Shown: positions 9,794 through 15,729 of the stretch, one piece after another
How the letters are laid out: every line of letters begins with the position of its first letter
How positions within the stretch are numbered: position 1 is the stretch's first letter
Assembly (NCBI GenBank): GCA_016932315.1
Contig: JAFGDD010000004.1
Span: 125,466-189,465 of the forward strand
Length of the DNA stretch: 64,000 nt
DNA from: Candidatus Woesearchaeota archaeon
GTDB taxonomy: Archaea > Nanobdellota > Nanobdellia > Woesearchaeales > SM23-78
Direction: 5' to 3'
Position numbers and translations under genes: made by a program
Notes under the pieces: generated by a model
Told to the model about the DNA's origin: nothing
Database searches by the model: none
What the model saw: only the letters and a program-made list of their open reading frames with translations

Positions 9794-10606
9794 TTAAGCC
9801 TTGATTTTCTTCTTCATATCCTTCCATGCGACCTCGAACAAGTCTTCGAGTGCTTTGGCAAAGAATGGAGTGTTAATCCAGATGCCAATGTCGTATGTTG
9901 GGTGGACTTCTGCATCGTCCATTACCATGAAGATAAGCTCTTTGCCGTCTACTATGACAAACCTGGCTTTGCAGTCAGTATGCCTTATGTCTGCAACGCT
10001 TGCCATGTCCTTGGCAACTTTCTCAGCTTCTTTTGTGTTGAGTGGAGCAGCGATTCTTATTTTCACTCCTCTCTTCTTTACTTGCTCAAACACAGGCATT
10101 AATCCCTCAATTTTCCTAAGGAGCCCTGCTGATGTTGTCATGATAGTTACTGTTTTCTCAGCATTTCTTATGGTTAATTCAAGGTGGTTGTACAGGTTGT
10201 GTCTGCCCTTTAATGAGCCTGACAAGTCAGATGGCTCAACCAGCTCAACGCCTTGTGTGTGCAAGGAATTAAGTTCCTGAATAACGTCTGTTTTCTTTAA
10301 CTCTTCCAGTCGCTTGACTCTCTCGTCAGCGTCCTGCTTCATGTTCTTCTTTACTCGCTCAACCACTTCTGATGGCTGCACAGCGATGTATTTTATTGGT
10401 TTGCCTAGCTTCATAACTACAAAGCCTTTCTTTTCTAGGCTTTCCAGAATATCGTAGCTTCTGCTTCTTGGCACATTGGCTATATCACTCAACTCACCCG
10501 CGGTACTGACCCCCCTTGATAGAAGGGCAGTCCATATCTTTACTTCGTAAAGGTTGAGTCCAAAGTATCTTCTTAACTTTGTCAGAAACTCTTCTTTAAC
10601 GATCAT
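9794..10606 (-). CDS. TrmB-family transcriptional regulator
   Basis: N-terminal wHTH (YEVKIWTALLSRGVSTAGELSDIANVPRSRSYDILESLEKKGFV) plus a TrmB C-terminal sensor-like domain. Confidence 0.75.
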   Translation of the reverse strand: MIVKEEFLTKLRRYFGLNLYEVKIWTALLSRGVSTAGELSDIANVPRSRSYDILESLEKKGFVVMKLGKPIKYIAVQPSEVVERVKKNMKQDADERVKRLEELKKTDVIQELNSLHTQGVELVEPSDLSGSLKGRHNLYNHLELTIRNAEKTVTIMTTSAGLLRKIEGLMPVFEQVKKRGVKIRIAAPLNTKEAEKVAKDMASVADIRHTDCKARFVIVDGKELIFMVMDDAEVHPTYDIGIWINTPFFAKALEDLFEVAWKDMKKKIKA

Positions 10607-10755
10607 ATTTCTACCTCCAAAAAGTAGGACTGATCACCCCTTTTTGATATCGAAAACGCATAACTACTATTTATATGTTACTGTTTTTTACGCTTAAAGA
10701 ATGGTTTCAAAAATACAGCCACTGACGAGATATAAAAATGTATGAGTTCGCGTAA

Positions 10756-11634
10756 TTATAAGGAGAGAATGTAGAAAATTTCACCGGGAATCTCAAAGCC
10801 CTGGATTTTGTAACTTAAAACATTTGCCAACCTTTCAAACCAAGCCCTTTTTTCTTTTTTTATGGTTTTTTTGCCACCAATGCTTTTACTAGAAAATGAA
10901 ACGATAATGAATTTTGCTTTGATGCTCTTGATGAGCTTTTCGCTCATGCCCCATCCTACAGCTTCCAATGAATCAAGTGTTTTGAAAAGAAAGACAGCAT
11001 CTGCATTATGTGTGATTTTATTTATTTCATTGCTATCAGCTTTGGTCAGGTCTATTTTTTTTACAAAGCCTTTTATTTTCATTATCTCAAAATACTTTTT
11101 TATGAAATCAAGGTCTTTCTCTGCCAGGTCGCAGGCAACATACTCTGGCTTGCAGCCAGCAGAAGCCACATAAGGATAGCTAAAGGGATTCAAGCCGCAG
11201 GCAAAATCCACGATCTTCTTTGGCAGCCCTGTAATCTTAAATATCTTTTTGTAAATCACAGAATAATATTGCAGTCTTTCCTGGCTGGACTTATGCAGCA
11301 TCAAGATTTTATTATGAATTTCCAGATTTTCAAGCGAAGGATTTTTTTTCAGTTCATCGAGAAGCCCAAACCTTTTGTTATAATCTTCTTGTATGAAAAC
11401 TCCGTACACTTCGCGGAGCTCTGAGCGTATCTTCCTTATCATTTCGTCATGCTCTTTTGAGCGCTGGAATTCAGGATACTTCACGCGCTCTAATTTTTCT
11501 TTTGCTTTCGGATATCTTTTCAGATAATCCTGAACTTTTAATCTGACAAAATCCTCGTCCAGATTTTTCAGCTCTTTTTTGGCAAGAACGTCCTTCACAA
11601 CAAGAATTATTAAACTTGAACCTGAGTTTTTCAT
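10756..11634 (-). CDS. FmrO/ArmA-Rmt-family 16S rRNA methyltransferase homolog (m7G1405-type fold)
   Basis: Local matches to ArmA-family motifs: IVDFACGLNPFSY (ArmA ILDFGCGFNPLAL), ADAVFLFKTLDSLEA (YDVVFLLKMLPVLKQ), FIIVSFSSKSIGGKKTI (FVISFPIKSLSGKEKGM), WFERL (WFESF). Confidence 0.6.
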   Translation of the reverse strand: MKNSGSSLIILVVKDVLAKKELKNLDEDFVRLKVQDYLKRYPKAKEKLERVKYPEFQRSKEHDEMIRKIRSELREVYGVFIQEDYNKRFGLLDELKKNPSLENLEIHNKILMLHKSSQERLQYYSVIYKKIFKITGLPKKIVDFACGLNPFSYPYVASAGCKPEYVACDLAEKDLDFIKKYFEIMKIKGFVKKIDLTKADSNEINKITHNADAVFLFKTLDSLEAVGWGMSEKLIKSIKAKFIIVSFSSKSIGGKKTIKKEKRAWFERLANVLSYKIQGFEIPGEIFYILSL

Positions 11635-11659
11635 GGGTAAGACCTAATTTTTTCAAAAC

Positions 11660-12715
11660 CTAGTTTTCCATCTTCCATCTTAGAATCCCTGCAATGCCGC
11701 CCAAGCCTTTAAGCTTTTGGTCAGCTTCATCTGTGCTGATGATATTTATGTGTGCGCCGGTCTTTTCACCGAGCCTCATAACACTTTCGACTTCCCTGCT
11801 TTTTCCTGCCTGCCTTGCATCATTGATGAAGCTGTAGCTGACAATCATTTCCTTGATTGCGCCGATATCCGCCTTTTCCCTACATTCCTTAAGCCCGTAG
11901 CAAGCCATGCTATCATGTATTGACTTCAATACTTCCTCAACCATGCCAAGCTCCTTTGCTGCCCTGTCATTCTCAAGCACTTTTAGAAGCTCAGGTCTCT
12001 GGAGCACCTCATTGATGGCATTCTCTTCAACATCAGAACAGGTTGCAAGAGTTATCTTCTTTTTCACATCATCATCAATTTCTTTCATCAGGTATTCCTT
12101 CCAGAAGCTCGGGCTGGCTACTATAATATTCTGAGGCTCAAGCCTTGTTGAATATTCTTTTAGCTTTTCCGCCAGCTCCTTATAAAAATCCTTTCCGCCT
12201 TCATCAACGCCTTTCTTTGCAACCTCGCCCTTGAGCTTTGCTAGTATCTCATAGCCTTGGTTCTTGAGCATTGCAAAAATAGCAGATTCCCTGTCAAAGA
12301 TGAGCAGGATGATTCGCGTCTTGATATTCTCTGCAGCCTCTCTTAGCTTGTCCAACTGATAATTAGGCCATTCCTGCTTCACAATTGTTATGACGTCGCC
12401 AGGCGACACATCAAATGTGTGATGGCTTCCCTTTGCCACATCCTCTGTTTCCAGGGTACTTATCCCGCTTATGCGCAAGGCGTCAGAGTGTGGATCAAAC
12501 TCTTTCTTCTCTGCTTTTATCTCCAGAAAAATCGTTTTTTTTACAGCAGTCTGCTTTCCATCGCTGCCGCCTGTGCTGAGTTTTATCTTCCTCTCAGTCC
12601 TACCTTTAATCAAGTCACCCTCTTCTACGACCTGGTTAAGGAACCACAAGTCTTCCTGGCTGTTGACCTTAACAACAACTTCTCCTTGCTTCAAGTTTTT
12701 CTTGATGATTTGCAT
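11660..12715 (-). CDS. pelA: Pelota (Dom34) mRNA-surveillance/ribosome-rescue factor
   Basis: eRF1-like three-domain architecture and the C-terminal GGIAGILRW motif. 351 aa. Confidence 0.85.
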   Translation of the reverse strand: MQIIKKNLKQGEVVVKVNSQEDLWFLNQVVEEGDLIKGRTERKIKLSTGGSDGKQTAVKKTIFLEIKAEKKEFDPHSDALRISGISTLETEDVAKGSHHTFDVSPGDVITIVKQEWPNYQLDKLREAAENIKTRIILLIFDRESAIFAMLKNQGYEILAKLKGEVAKKGVDEGGKDFYKELAEKLKEYSTRLEPQNIIVASPSFWKEYLMKEIDDDVKKKITLATCSDVEENAINEVLQRPELLKVLENDRAAKELGMVEEVLKSIHDSMACYGLKECREKADIGAIKEMIVSYSFINDARQAGKSREVESVMRLGEKTGAHINIISTDEADQKLKGLGGIAGILRWKMEN

Positions 12716-12819
12716 ATTGAATGGTTTTATTTGTTGGTATATAATATTTTTCGTTTTTTCCTCTTTAATCGTGCCTCTAAACCAATAAATTTATATATCT
12801 CGATTATTAAGAAAGCGAT

Positions 12820-14007
12820 ATGCGTAGATTGAAATCTAAACTTGCACAATCAGCCACCCAAGCAGGAGTAGTCATCATCTTGATTGCTGTGCTTATAATA
12901 TTCTACCTATTGTTCATGGCTCCTGAAGACAGAGCCAAGCTCTTAGGAGAGGACATAAGCAATGGGAATGGAGGCGTGCCTTCGGGAGTCAAGAGCACAT
13001 TGTTCTCTCAGGTACCCGGAAGGATTTATCCATTAACCTCCAACCTCATAGAGCACACCATGCCTTCATTCATGGTTTTCACTGTGACTAATGCTGGTGA
13101 GCTTAAAAGAGTTGATTCATTATATATCAAGAACTCTGCTTTCAGCGACAGTGCAGGAGAAGTCATCTTCTTCTATGACGCTAAGACCACTAATGACGTA
13201 AAGCTATCATTTAATATAAAAAAGCACTCAGGGAGGCTTATCATCAAGCTTAACAATAACCAATTGTTTGATGGCGAAATAACAGAAACAAGCCCGCCAC
13301 CCATAAGCCTGCCCTCAGAATACCTACAATCCAGGAATGTTCTCACTTTCACAGCATCAGAGGTTGGCGCAGCATTCTGGCGCGTTAACGAGTATGAGCT
13401 TGAAAATGTTTTGGTCTCTGCCAAGATTACAGACTATTCCGGGGCTTTCGCAGAGCAGCACTTTTCAATAACGCCTAATGAATATGATTATTTTGATAAG
13501 GCAGTGTTTGACTTCCTGCCTGACTGCCCACCACGAGACGAAGGGCTGGTACAAATCCTCATTAATAATAGGGCAATATACACCAGCTATCCTGATTGCG
13601 GCGTTAAGAGCAGGATCGAGATAAGCAAGGAGCTTCTAAAACCAGGGGACAATACCCTTGTAGCCACAACCAACAGCGGAGCATTCCTGATTGACATGCC
13701 AAAAATAATAATAATCCAGAAGGAAATGCCTCAACCAATATTCTACTTCAATGTGCCAAATACGCTCTATGATGCATTGTATTACGGGCAAAGAGGCTTG
13801 GTATTGACTTTAAGGTTTGCAGATGCAGGCAGCGTAAAGAGAGGCACTCTTGAGGTAAATGATTTCAAGACATTTTTTGAAATCCAAGACATAGCTTACC
13901 AGACTCCAATTGATCCTGAGTTCATAGTCGCAGGCCCGAACTCAGTAAAGATAACCCCTCAATCAGACCCAATAGATATGACTGAATTAAGGATGGACGT
14001 TATTTGA
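12820..14007 (+). CDS. Hypothetical membrane-anchored extracellular protein (N-terminal signal anchor); first gene of a plus-strand surface-protein cluster
   Basis: N-terminal TM (AGVVIILIAVLIIFYLLFM) then a ~360-aa soluble domain with no recognisable catalytic motif. TATA-like tttatatat lies ~30 nt upstream. Confidence 0.5.
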   Translation: MRRLKSKLAQSATQAGVVIILIAVLIIFYLLFMAPEDRAKLLGEDISNGNGGVPSGVKSTLFSQVPGRIYPLTSNLIEHTMPSFMVFTVTNAGELKRVDSLYIKNSAFSDSAGEVIFFYDAKTTNDVKLSFNIKKHSGRLIIKLNNNQLFDGEITETSPPPISLPSEYLQSRNVLTFTASEVGAAFWRVNEYELENVLVSAKITDYSGAFAEQHFSITPNEYDYFDKAVFDFLPDCPPRDEGLVQILINNRAIYTSYPDCGVKSRIEISKELLKPGDNTLVATTNSGAFLIDMPKIIIIQKEMPQPIFYFNVPNTLYDALYYGQRGLVLTLRFADAGSVKRGTLEVNDFKTFFEIQDIAYQTPIDPEFIVAGPNSVKITPQSDPIDMTELRMDVI

Positions 14008-14178: not shown

Positions 14179-15729
14179 GTGATGCTCATGGCTTCTTCAG
14201 GCGGAGGATTAATGACAGGATTGGCTACTAAGACTAAAGATGTTATGACCAAGCACGTGCACGGAGATGCCCCTCATAACCTTCGGTTCCTTTTCATGCT
14301 GGCAATTCTCATCCAGCTAGTCGACGTCTTCTTTTTGAGGTTTGACAGGACTGTTTTTAGGATGACAGCCATAGGGATGTATTTTGTGCTTGTTGTGCTG
14401 GCTGCTTTTTTCTTCAGAAAAGAAGGGTACTTTGTTAATGTGAAACAAATACTGATATTCGCTCTTATATCTACTTTTTATATTCTTGTCCCTTTTTTCC
14501 TTTACCGAATTCCGACAGTACAGCTTTTCGGTGCGACAACACTCGCTGGTTGGGTTAATTTCCTCCTCGCCATACTCCCTCTCTGGCCTATTTATATCGG
14601 TATAAAGGCAGATATTCCCTTTGTTCACAAATACGTAAACTTTTGGATACTTTTCTTGTTATTCCTCTTTATTTTTGGAGTTGGAATGAATTTCCGAGCA
14701 GGAATGTTATCCTCGATTGGCGGTAGGCCTCAGCTGCTCCAGGCCGGTGAAGTCATGACTTATATTTATGAGAAAACAATTGATGTAGCCAAGAATTTCT
14801 GGAAAGCAGTTAACCCTGCCGTGATCGTACCTAAATTTATGAATGCCACAGGCATTGCTTATTATACTGGCATGGTGGATAATAATGAGAAAGCGCCAGT
14901 AGGTCTTTACCTTGACAATGTTCGTACCATTGAGAAATATTTTTATGAAGGCTCACCAGTAGTGGTGTGGGCTGATGTGAGAGGCAAAAGCTTTAACGAA
15001 GAAATAATCATGACGCCAGGATGTTATATTGAGAACGGCGGCAGCGGAACACCAGATCCCAGGAGATTCTCTATTTTTGGGGAAGAGCAGGACACTCTTT
15101 CTTGCACTTTTGAAGGATTAACCAAAGGTTCTTATCTGGCTAAGATGCAAGCAGCATTTAATTTTGAGACATGGGCTTATGTTGATTACACATTTGTTGA
15201 CATTGAAACTAGGCGCGCGTATGAGATGCAGGGAAAGAACATTAACATGGAGCTTAATATTGACAAGCTGCCAAGAGCGATTTTTTCAAATGGCCCAATC
15301 ATGCTAGGAATGGCGTCAATGATTGACCAGCCAATTGGCATCGATATAAAATACAATACTAGAGAGCCAATCCTTGGTGTGACTGTTGATAACTTGTGGA
15401 GCGAAGGAGAAGCTTTCCCTACACAATATGTTATTCTTGTGCCTGATGATTTTGACCTTGTGAAATGCGATCGAGGCACTCCAACCATAGAGCACGGCAA
15501 GATTCCTGGCTATGAAAGAGAAGTGCCTGGCTATGATGCTTACATATTCAGCAAGGAGACTCTTGACCCAAGGCAAGGCTTCCAGTCATTGACTTGCAGG
15601 TTGCACATCAAGGATGACAAGCTCAGCACATTCCTGACAGGCTCACAGAAAATAACTAAGACATTCGTTGCATTAGCCAAGTATGATTATGTTTTGAAAA
15701 AAAATGTGAGGTTTACAGTTAAAGAGTAA
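14179..15729 (+). CDS. Hypothetical polytopic membrane protein (about 6 N-terminal TM helices) with a large C-terminal extracellular domain
   Basis: Hydrophobic segments in the first ~200 aa, then a ~320-aa soluble domain containing Cys residues. It sits within the surface-protein cluster. Confidence 0.5.
   Translation: MMLMASSGGGLMTGLATKTKDVMTKHVHGDAPHNLRFLFMLAILIQLVDVFFLRFDRTVFRMTAIGMYFVLVVLAAFFFRKEGYFVNVKQILIFALISTFYILVPFFLYRIPTVQLFGATTLAGWVNFLLAILPLWPIYIGIKADIPFVHKYVNFWILFLLFLFIFGVGMNFRAGMLSSIGGRPQLLQAGEVMTYIYEKTIDVAKNFWKAVNPAVIVPKFMNATGIAYYTGMVDNNEKAPVGLYLDNVRTIEKYFYEGSPVVVWADVRGKSFNEEIIMTPGCYIENGGSGTPDPRRFSIFGEEQDTLSCTFEGLTKGSYLAKMQAAFNFETWAYVDYTFVDIETRRAYEMQGKNINMELNIDKLPRAIFSNGPIMLGMASMIDQPIGIDIKYNTREPILGVTVDNLWSEGEAFPTQYVILVPDDFDLVKCDRGTPTIEHGKIPGYEREVPGYDAYIFSKETLDPRQGFQSLTCRLHIKDDKLSTFLTGSQKITKTFVALAKYDYVLKKNVRFTVKE

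Follow-up and report, generated by a model that had tools for sequence, protein, structure and literature searches.

A chromosomal archaeal member of the Arm/FmrO rRNA methyltransferase family in Woesearchaeota, a candidate native modifier of the small ribosomal subunit

The 64,000-nucleotide (nt) stretch of contig JAFGDD010000004.1 of Candidatus Woesearchaeota archaeon analysed here (the window) encodes on its minus strand a protein of the Arm/FmrO family of S-adenosylmethionine (SAM)-dependent methyltransferases, which consists of a helical N-terminal domain (residues 1 to ~112) followed by a Rossmann-fold C-terminal domain (Table 1). An earlier, sequence-only reading had recognized in this protein the signature blocks of the ArmA family, and all four strings are indeed found, in order, in the 292-residue translation: DFACGLNPF (143-151), VFLFKTLDSLE (214-224), FIIVSFSSKSIGGK (242-255) and WFERL (265-269). 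The Pfam FmrO profile PF07091, with which that reading could be checked, aligns to residues 61-287 over nearly its whole length (positions 27-253 of its 255) with E = 4.7e-25 and a score of 88.9 bits, the cut-off being 27, and no unrelated class-I methyltransferase family takes precedence over it. The assignment to an archaeon holds as well, in that the identical protein in the NCBI database is annotated 'hypothetical protein JW756_01765 [Candidatus Woesearchaeota archaeon]' and derives from a metagenome-assembled genome (MAG). Membership of the Arm/FmrO family and the native status of the gene, which is discussed below, are close to certain.

Among solved structures, all significant sequence matches above noise are 16S rRNA (guanine1405-N7) methyltransferases, the closest being RmtC (phmmer E = 1.6e-19) and Sgm (9e-17), followed by RmtF, RmtB and ArmA; a profile built from 21 archaeal homologues reaches 135 bits against Sgm (E = 2e-38). 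The AlphaFold2 model of the window protein, built on the same number of homologues (pLDDT 91, pTM 0.85), comprises eight N-terminal helices and then an alternating beta/alpha fold. When this model was compared with the PDB using Foldseek, the best 16 matches were all chains of enzymes that produce 7-methylguanosine (m7G) at position 1405, namely RmtC, Sgm, RmtF, RmtB and ArmA, and spanned both domains; full-length Sgm and RmtF superpose on it with TM-scores of 0.74-0.83 over ~290 columns. The next matches are unrelated methyltransferases with E-values of 3.6e-7 or weaker, more than 1000-fold weaker than those of the m7G1405 enzymes.

The residues studied experimentally in RmtC (PMC10288597) and Sgm (PMC2896518) were mapped onto the window protein via three independent alignments and then counted in 232 archaeal sequences of the window type. 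In motif I, D143, G147 and N149 are invariant throughout this set; in seven bacterial reference enzymes D143 and N149 are likewise identical, and position 147 is Gly in six and Ala in RmtC. The same invariance is found for S116 (RmtC S107), E119 and R120 (Sgm R108), which are implicated in cofactor binding and catalysis, and position 169 (RmtC D160, the ribose-binding acid; Sgm D156) is D or E in 230 of the 232. All SAM-site residues of Sgm (R108, G135, D156 and D182) are present in the window protein, as R120, G147, D169 and D195. In RmtC, Lys204 touches N7 of the flipped-out G1405, and the K204A substitution kills activity (PMC10288597); its equivalent, K218, is conserved in 232/232 window-type sequences, 118/119 sequences of a sister archaeal subfamily (see below) and 126/126 bacterial sequences. 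Position 80, which is F80 in the window protein and corresponds to Y60 of RmtC that stacks on the flipped base, is F or Y in 231/232. K250, the counterpart of RmtC K236, is also present, with K or R at this position in only 146/232. Asp221 is invariant in the archaeal set, in contrast to Pro or Thr in bacteria, and the residue of RmtC at the equivalent position, T207, contacts A1408 (PMC10288597). The predicted helix-44 loop is unchanged in length relative to Loop237-246 of RmtC, which distorts helix 44 with the participation of R241 and M245 (PMC10288597). The corresponding K255 and I258 of the window protein are conservative replacements rather than identities, and position 255 is K or R in 189/232 archaeal sequences.

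Table 1. Features of the methyltransferase gene and its surroundings, in window positions.
Feature	Positions	Strand	Basis or remark
FmrO/Arm-family SAM-dependent methyltransferase gene, 292 amino acids	10756..11634	minus	single open reading frame (ORF), ATG start, 292 codons
Motif I, SAM-binding, D143-P150 (DFACGLNP)	11185..11208	minus	aligns to Sgm DLACGLNP, which contains G135
Lys218 codon, equivalent of RmtC Lys204	10981..10983	minus	aligned in three alignments
Helix-44 loop S251-I258 (SIGGKKTI), counterpart of RmtC Loop237-246	10861..10884	minus	profile alignments to Sgm, RmtF, RmtC
N1 insertion, ~18 residues, codons for residues 41-59	11458..11514	minus	alignment; absent from bacterial enzymes
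Arg74 codon, aligned with essential RmtC His54	11413..11415	minus	alignments
Pelota (aPelota/Dom34), ribosome-rescue factor, upstream neighbour	11660..12715	minus	PF03463, PF03464, PF03465 (eRF1_1/2/3); TIGR00111 203 bits, cut-off 177.65
Pelota-FmrO spacer, 25 nt	11635..11659	minus	between pelota stop TAG (11662-11660) and FmrO ATG (11634)
Divergent intergenic region 5' of pelota	12716..12819	minus	TATA-like atattatata, 12747-12738
FmrO-TrmB spacer, 149 nt	10607..10755	minus	oligo-T runs (terminator-like); TATA-like acatataaatag; GGAGGT
TrmB-family (TrmBL2-like) DNA-binding protein, downstream neighbour	9794..10606	minus	PF01978 and PF11495

The departures of the window type from the bacterial enzymes are seen in the N-terminal docking subdomain. 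AlphaFold2 models the N1 insertion, which lies between helices 2 and 3 of this subdomain, with confidence as a pair of short helices (42-50 and 53-57). Counted from L25 to R70, the spacer is 44 residues long in the window protein; ArmA and RmtB/C/D/E/F have 25-26 residues here, and the sister archaeal subfamily has 31. Helix alpha3 bears R67, R70, Arg74, Y77 and G78, with F80 just past the helix end. Arg74 occupies the position of RmtC His54, where the H54A substitution abolishes activity (PMC10288597); His is found at this position in 7/7 bacterial references and in 117/119 environmental matches of the bacterial profile, whereas the window-type archaeal sequences have Arg in 165 and His in 46 (~20%) of the 232. 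In the alpha1-alpha2 loop, K19-K20-E21-L22 (KKEL) of the window protein stands against S-K-K-Y in bacteria; the MAFFT alignment puts RmtC K20 on a Glu, and K20 and Y21 of RmtC have no clear equivalent. R39, K47 and R50 of RmtC correspond to R58, R67 and R70, which are basic in 203, 220 and 232 of the 232 sequences, and the equivalents of K67/R68 are still basic in the window protein. The sister archaeal subfamily keeps His54 in 117/119 and K20-Y21 in 108/119 sequences, and therefore forms with the bacterial-type docking set and forms of the window type mark the two ends of the archaeal radiation. This comparison of alignments suggests that the window-type changes represent drift of one docking surface in a family of fixed chemistry.

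The sequence-only reading placed the gene between a TrmB regulator and pelota in a housekeeping context, and this description is borne out by Pfam and NCBIfam for both neighbours, with the genes for PheRS alpha and beta further on, beyond the TrmB-like gene. The spacer between pelota and the methyltransferase gene carries an AGGT Shine-Dalgarno-like element (11645-11642), 7 nt ahead of the ATG, and could not accommodate a promoter. The atattatata element upstream of pelota is centred ~27 nt before the pelota ATG, and because this spacing matches the usual archaeal TATA-to-start distance, it is likely to be the promoter of a leaderless pelota-FmrO transcript. On the other side, a TATA-like acatataaatag and a GGAGGT lie ~68 nt and 6 nt, respectively, ahead of the ATG of the TrmB-like gene, which probably has its own promoter. 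Given the short gap without room for a promoter, the TATA-like element before pelota and the separate signals of the TrmB-like gene, we infer a pelota-methyltransferase bicistron; co-transcription of the two genes as an operon appears most likely. On the opposite strand, the large ORFs at 12820-14007 and 14179-15729 (both plus) have no Pfam match. The 395-residue one of the two stands head-to-head with pelota in every syntenic locus, with 30-88% identity, and begins with MRRLKSKLAQSATQAGVVIILIAVLIIF, a sequence reminiscent of a type IV pilin-like (class III) signal peptide.

The gene order is conserved among relatives. In contigs with homologues of 71, 44, 42, 39 and 37% identity, pelota is always directly upstream and overlaps the methyltransferase start by 10-37 nt; most of these contigs also have the TrmB-like gene and both PheRS genes downstream, so that the order pelota-FmrO-TrmB-PheS-PheT is kept down to 37% identity. 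Across 80 metagenome loci gathered with the family profile, 56 of which are informative upstream and 61 downstream, pelota is immediately upstream in 16/56 and a TrmB-like gene is adjacent downstream in 15/61. Pelota adjacency follows identity to the window protein: it is seen in all loci of at least 47% identity with at least 900 nt of upstream sequence, is mixed at 37-46% and is found in none at 36% or below. In another subclade, represented by eight loci (L038, L039, L040, L044, L045, L046, L048 and L071), the homologue directly follows, with gaps of -13 to 39 nt, the gene for arCOG04150, the universal archaeal KH protein whose Pfam domains relate it to Pno1/Dim2 and Krr1, and in five of the eight the KH gene is itself preceded by aIF1A. 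Some archaeal loci place the homologue beside small-subunit maturation genes. Arm enzymes require the assembled free 30S subunit, and G1405 is a position at the subunit interface. Pelota, together with ABCE1, splits stalled ribosomes into subunits, and Pno1/Dim2 and IF1A bind beside the decoding centre. The associations with pelota and with KH-aIF1A would fit, circumstantially, with an enzyme that modifies small subunits while these are free or in late maturation.

Several other features of these loci deserve a record. Dph5-like genes lie within 2 kilobases (kb) of the homologue in five loci. In three (L060, L064 and L069) a NOL1/NOP2/Sun-type m5C RNA methyltransferase gene is next to the homologue, 5 and 27 nt downstream of it in two; its identification as an RsmF-type 16S m5C enzyme, which its Pfam match (RsmB/F-type) might invite, was not relied on, the best NCBIfam match being a tRNA m5C49 methyltransferase model below its cut-off, which leaves the assignment ambiguous. 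A 603-residue dCTP-deaminase-like protein, with DCD_N, DCD and DCD_C domains and a weak NUDIX match, is encoded between the TrmB-like gene and PheRS alpha in L016 (at ~5.9-7.7 kb), L023 and L028, and is not present in the window. The TrmB-family protein is 74-96% identical across L001, L003, L005, L009, L010, L011 and L012, the corresponding ranges being 37-84% for pelota, 40-85% for PheRS alpha and 37-71% for the methyltransferase. Its best NCBIfam match, TrmBL2, covers the full length but scores far below the cut-off, and rather than a sugar regulator, the protein may be one of global or chromatin type.

The archaeal family is large. Among 1.84 billion representatives, the 21-sequence archaeal profile retrieves 1,868 clusters (50% identity) at E <= 1e-3 and 655 at E <= 1e-30, and its best 150 matches are all full-length with at least 224 bits. 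Among 240 archaeal matches listed, the named sources are Woesearchaeota, Nanoarchaeota, Nanoarchaeia or unclassified archaeon, the sole exception being one record labelled 'Euryarchaeota archaeon SM23-78'; the homologue-bearing metagenomes come from sediment, groundwater and lakes. A second, shorter archaeal subfamily (~270 residues), the sister subfamily mentioned above, was reached via locus L080, which we regard as archaeal on the strength of its uS10, a match to the archaeal/eukaryotic model that exceeds the cut-off; a tRNA scan of the distant loci, intended to type their domain of origin, found none. A neighbour-joining tree without outgroup was computed from 209 alignment columns for 65 representatives sharing less than 45% identity, of which 53 came from archaeal queries and 12 are bacterial (RmtB/C/D/E/F, ArmA, Sgm and five environmental matches of the bacterial profile). 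The archaeal homologues and the bacterial enzymes, whose joint phylogeny had been suggested along with the sequence-only reading, separate in this tree into two sets without a single misplaced sequence (bootstrap 94/100; 161/200 in a smaller version). Identity averages 0.37 on either side and 0.28 across the split. Given the split and the equal identity within the two sides, the archaeal branch is as deep as the sampled bacterial one and is no offshoot of a resistance clade.

A scan of species-labelled genomes with the single window protein returned two loci only, L001 (CAYGYA010000018.1) and L002 (CAYGYA010000055.1). Both belong to one MAG labelled 'uncultured Methanosarcinales archaeon', and each carries a 69%-identical copy in a contig with a GC content of 0.37-0.38 and Woesearchaeota-type synteny; one copy is flanked by pelota and the TrmB-like gene, and the other has pelota upstream in a contig that ends inside the gene. 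Most likely, this MAG contains two mis-binned Woesearchaeota strains. Three family members of 482-489 residues (P0088, P0121 and P0180) are fusions in which the FmrO-type domain makes up the first ~270-282 residues; the precomputed Pfam matches of P0088 add class-I methyltransferase families including PF08241 and PF05148, and these proteins could be bifunctional RNA methyltransferases.

Taken together, these observations lead us to favour, with moderate confidence, the view that the gene encodes a chromosomal, vertically inherited SAM-dependent small-subunit rRNA methyltransferase of the Arm/FmrO family, for whose 30S substrate, target nucleotide and physiological role we infer the following course of action. 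Transcribed together with pelota from a two-gene operon, the enzyme would dock on the free, assembled small subunit, as its bacterial relatives do, with N-terminal basic residues (K19/K20, R58, R67, R70, R74 and K87/R88) meeting the conserved surface of helices 24, 27, 44 and 45. The SIGGKKTI loop, through K255 and I258, would open the top of helix 44, the guanine equivalent to Escherichia coli G1405 would be flipped against F80, and the methyl group of SAM would be transferred to N7 with the help of K218. The decoding centre would then be modified constitutively, and not as a form of acquired drug resistance; insensitivity to 4,6-disubstituted deoxystreptamine aminoglycosides would follow as a side effect. 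That the archaeal small subunit receives m7G at its G1405 equivalent seems to us more likely than not.

A number of observations count against this view. Three features that are essential in RmtC are, according to the alignments, altered in the window type, namely His54 (to Arg), K20-Y21 (to KKEL) and the docking surface, which gains the 18-residue insertion. The window protein scores 138 bits against the NCBIfam Rmt-family equivalog model NF000466 and does not reach its cut-off of 250 bits, so that to call the gene a resistance Rmt would be a misnomer; the range for other archaeal homologues is 112-173 bits, and against the RmtC model the window protein has 70.8 bits for a cut-off of 550. The literature yielded neither an activity assay of an archaeal member nor an m7G mapped in rRNA of Nanoarchaeota. 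The organism's own 16S rRNA, in which G1405 could be checked, was not found either, by Rfam in the window or by the universal 1392-1406 pattern in 611 kb of sequence that included the homologue loci. The tree is unrooted, distance-based and limited to 209 columns and does not set the direction of any ancient transfer. Finally, 40 of the 56 informative loci are without pelota, so that this linkage characterizes one subclade and might be an inherited order without functional meaning; pelota coupling was accordingly dropped as a family-wide rule and is taken as a feature of that subclade. The docking changes, together with the invariant Asp221 where RmtC has the A1408-contacting T207 and bacteria have Pro or Thr, and with the low NF000466 score, are what one would expect if an enzyme of the same family and fold had been retargeted by its changed docking subdomain to another nucleotide, whether nearby in one of helices 44 and 45 or in a different RNA. 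It is also in line with such retargeting that Husain et al. (2010; PMC2896518) found it unclear whether an archaeal homologue has the same function. Nevertheless, base- and cofactor-positioning residues do not vary, the equivalents of R39, K47, R50 and K67/R68 are still basic, and the helix-44 loop retains its length and one basic and one hydrophobic residue. Moreover, about a fifth of the sequences matching the window-type profile retain His, and the sister subfamily retains His along with K-Y, which suggests drift. With the docking surface read as drifting, methylation of the same target leads, and retargeting, although unlikely, stays its main rival.

Even if m7G1405 is made, it might be kept as intrinsic resistance against environmental aminoglycoside-type antibiotics, as in actinomycete producers, rather than for the tuning of translation. 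Resistance to 4,6-disubstituted aminoglycosides is the sole demonstrated phenotype of the family (PMC10288597), and the archaeal profile scores highest against a producer enzyme, Sgm. However, no aminoglycoside biosynthesis gene or other resistance gene is found among the immediate neighbours, the gene is retained in hundreds of diverged small-genome lineages, and its operon-like placement beside pelota, or beside the KH-aIF1A pair, we would argue, fits ribosome biology better than defence; we consider this explanation improbable. The recent acquisition of a bacterial aminoglycoside-resistance gene, or bacterial contamination of the assembly, would be a natural suspicion for a family that was first known from bacteria and whose members rmtC, rmtB, rmtD, rmtE and armA travel on conjugative plasmids beside insertion sequence (IS) or transposase genes. 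The comparison of codon usage with the neighbouring genes gives no sign of horizontal transfer: the synonymous codon log-likelihood of the gene is -1.057, a fit slightly above that of the average gene (window mean -1.079, standard deviation 0.059), and the GC content at third codon positions is 0.406 against 0.443 (standard deviation 0.053) for window genes. The low GC content of the whole gene (0.366 against 0.414, standard deviation 0.026) was dropped as a transfer signal since third positions and synonymous codons are typical; it is probably due to a composition rich in Lys, Ile and Phe. Furthermore, Pfam searches of the window ORFs revealed no transposase, IS or other mobile-element gene in the immediate neighbourhood, the genes on either side are archaeal with synteny kept to 37% identity, the archaeal/bacterial split is clean, and identity to every resistance enzyme tested is at most 31% in a trimmed alignment. 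Recent transfer or contamination is thus very improbable. The earlier suggestion of a native enzyme rather than an acquired resistance gene is supported by the same findings and by the sub-cut-off Rmt score, as far as sequence can take it.

The window gene is a further member of a known, uncharacterised archaeal branch, given that Nanoarchaeota homologues have been in the literature since 2010; no later functional work on them was found in the literature after the 2010 and 2013 papers discussed below. New here are the scale of the radiation, its clean split from the bacterial enzymes, the distinction of two subfamilies by their docking surfaces, and the conserved operons. A broader scenario, to which we are drawn only tentatively and with somewhat more doubt than belief, is that the whole phylum (Nanoarchaeota in the broad sense, including Woesearchaeota) might be constitutively m7G1405-modified by the native enzyme, with expression coupled to pelota-dependent recycling or to late maturation (the Pno1/Dim2-like KH protein and aIF1A). 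The bacterial resistance enzymes would in that case be a drug-selected branch of an older housekeeping family, and these archaea would be intrinsically insensitive to the kanamycin/gentamicin class. If a native m7G1405 were confirmed, this would be the first lineage with a 'resistance' modification as a standard feature of the ribosome, with a bearing on the origin of the clinical Arm/Rmt enzymes. The operons with pelota and KH-aIF1A offer hypotheses on the timing of the modification in the ribosome life cycle, and the natural variation at RmtC-essential positions (His54 to Arg, KKY to KKEL) could be of use to those who design inhibitors of the bacterial enzymes. Some pipelines label these archaeal genes '16S rRNA (guanine(1405)-N(7))-methyltransferase'; resistome surveys of sediment and groundwater metagenomes could yield inflated counts as a result, since these are no mobile resistance genes.

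With respect to characterized systems, the best-scoring solved relative of the archaeal profile is Sgm of Micromonospora zionensis (PDB 3lcu/3lcv), kin of GrmA, KgmB and FmrO, with a TM-score of 0.74-0.82 to the window model over both domains and ~27-28% identity. Sgm, however, is the self-resistance gene of an aminoglycoside producer, and has His at the position of Arg74; the bacterial family, of which Sgm itself was compared over residues 53-281, is known in a form with a short N1 spacer instead of the window insertion. The best single-sequence match is the acquired, plasmid-borne RmtC (PDB 6pqb, 6cn0; 30S complex 8ghu), with 31% identity (tblastn) and the same architecture of N1, N2 and Rossmann fold. 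Equivalents of its R39, K47, R50, Y60, K67/R68, S107, D160, K204, K236, R241 and M245 are present in the window protein. The two differ at G19-K20-Y21 of RmtC, against K-K-E-L, at His54, against Arg74, and in the 18 additional residues of the window N1; R211 of RmtC has no window counterpart but is not conserved among the bacterial enzymes either. Furthermore, rmtC lies beside an IS1-family transposase gene on conjugative plasmids, in contrast to the conserved chromosomal block of the window gene. ArmA, RmtB, RmtD, RmtE and RmtF of Gram-negative pathogens share the Pfam family, fold and motif set of the window protein but are only 23-26% identical to it over the full length, shorter (247-273 residues), associated with mobile elements and placed on the bacterial side of the tree.

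The closest precedent in archaea is NEQ545 of Nanoarchaeum equitans, which Husain et al. (2010; PMC2896518) described as 'the first archaeal ortholog' of Arm, with perfectly conserved C-terminal (catalytic) motifs, a diverged N-terminal domain and one N-terminal helix missing, and whose function they left open. According to Podar et al. (2013; PMC3655853), the two nanoarchaeal genomes available at the time (N. equitans and Nst1) both have the gene, which is absent from other archaea and which they listed as the only functionally assignable Nanoarchaeota-specific (signature) gene. By these published descriptions, NEQ545 lacks an N-terminal helix where the window protein has extra ones; neither paper mentions the pelota or KH-aIF1A contexts or the scale of the archaeal radiation. 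As a constitutive, chromosomally encoded enzyme, the window protein would also be comparable to the housekeeping methyltransferases of the decoding centre, RsmG, RsmF, RsmH/RsmI and KsgA/Dim1, a likeness that extends to the proposed role only. Bacterial RsmG, for instance, makes m7G527. These enzymes belong to other protein families and act on other target positions than the one proposed for the window enzyme.

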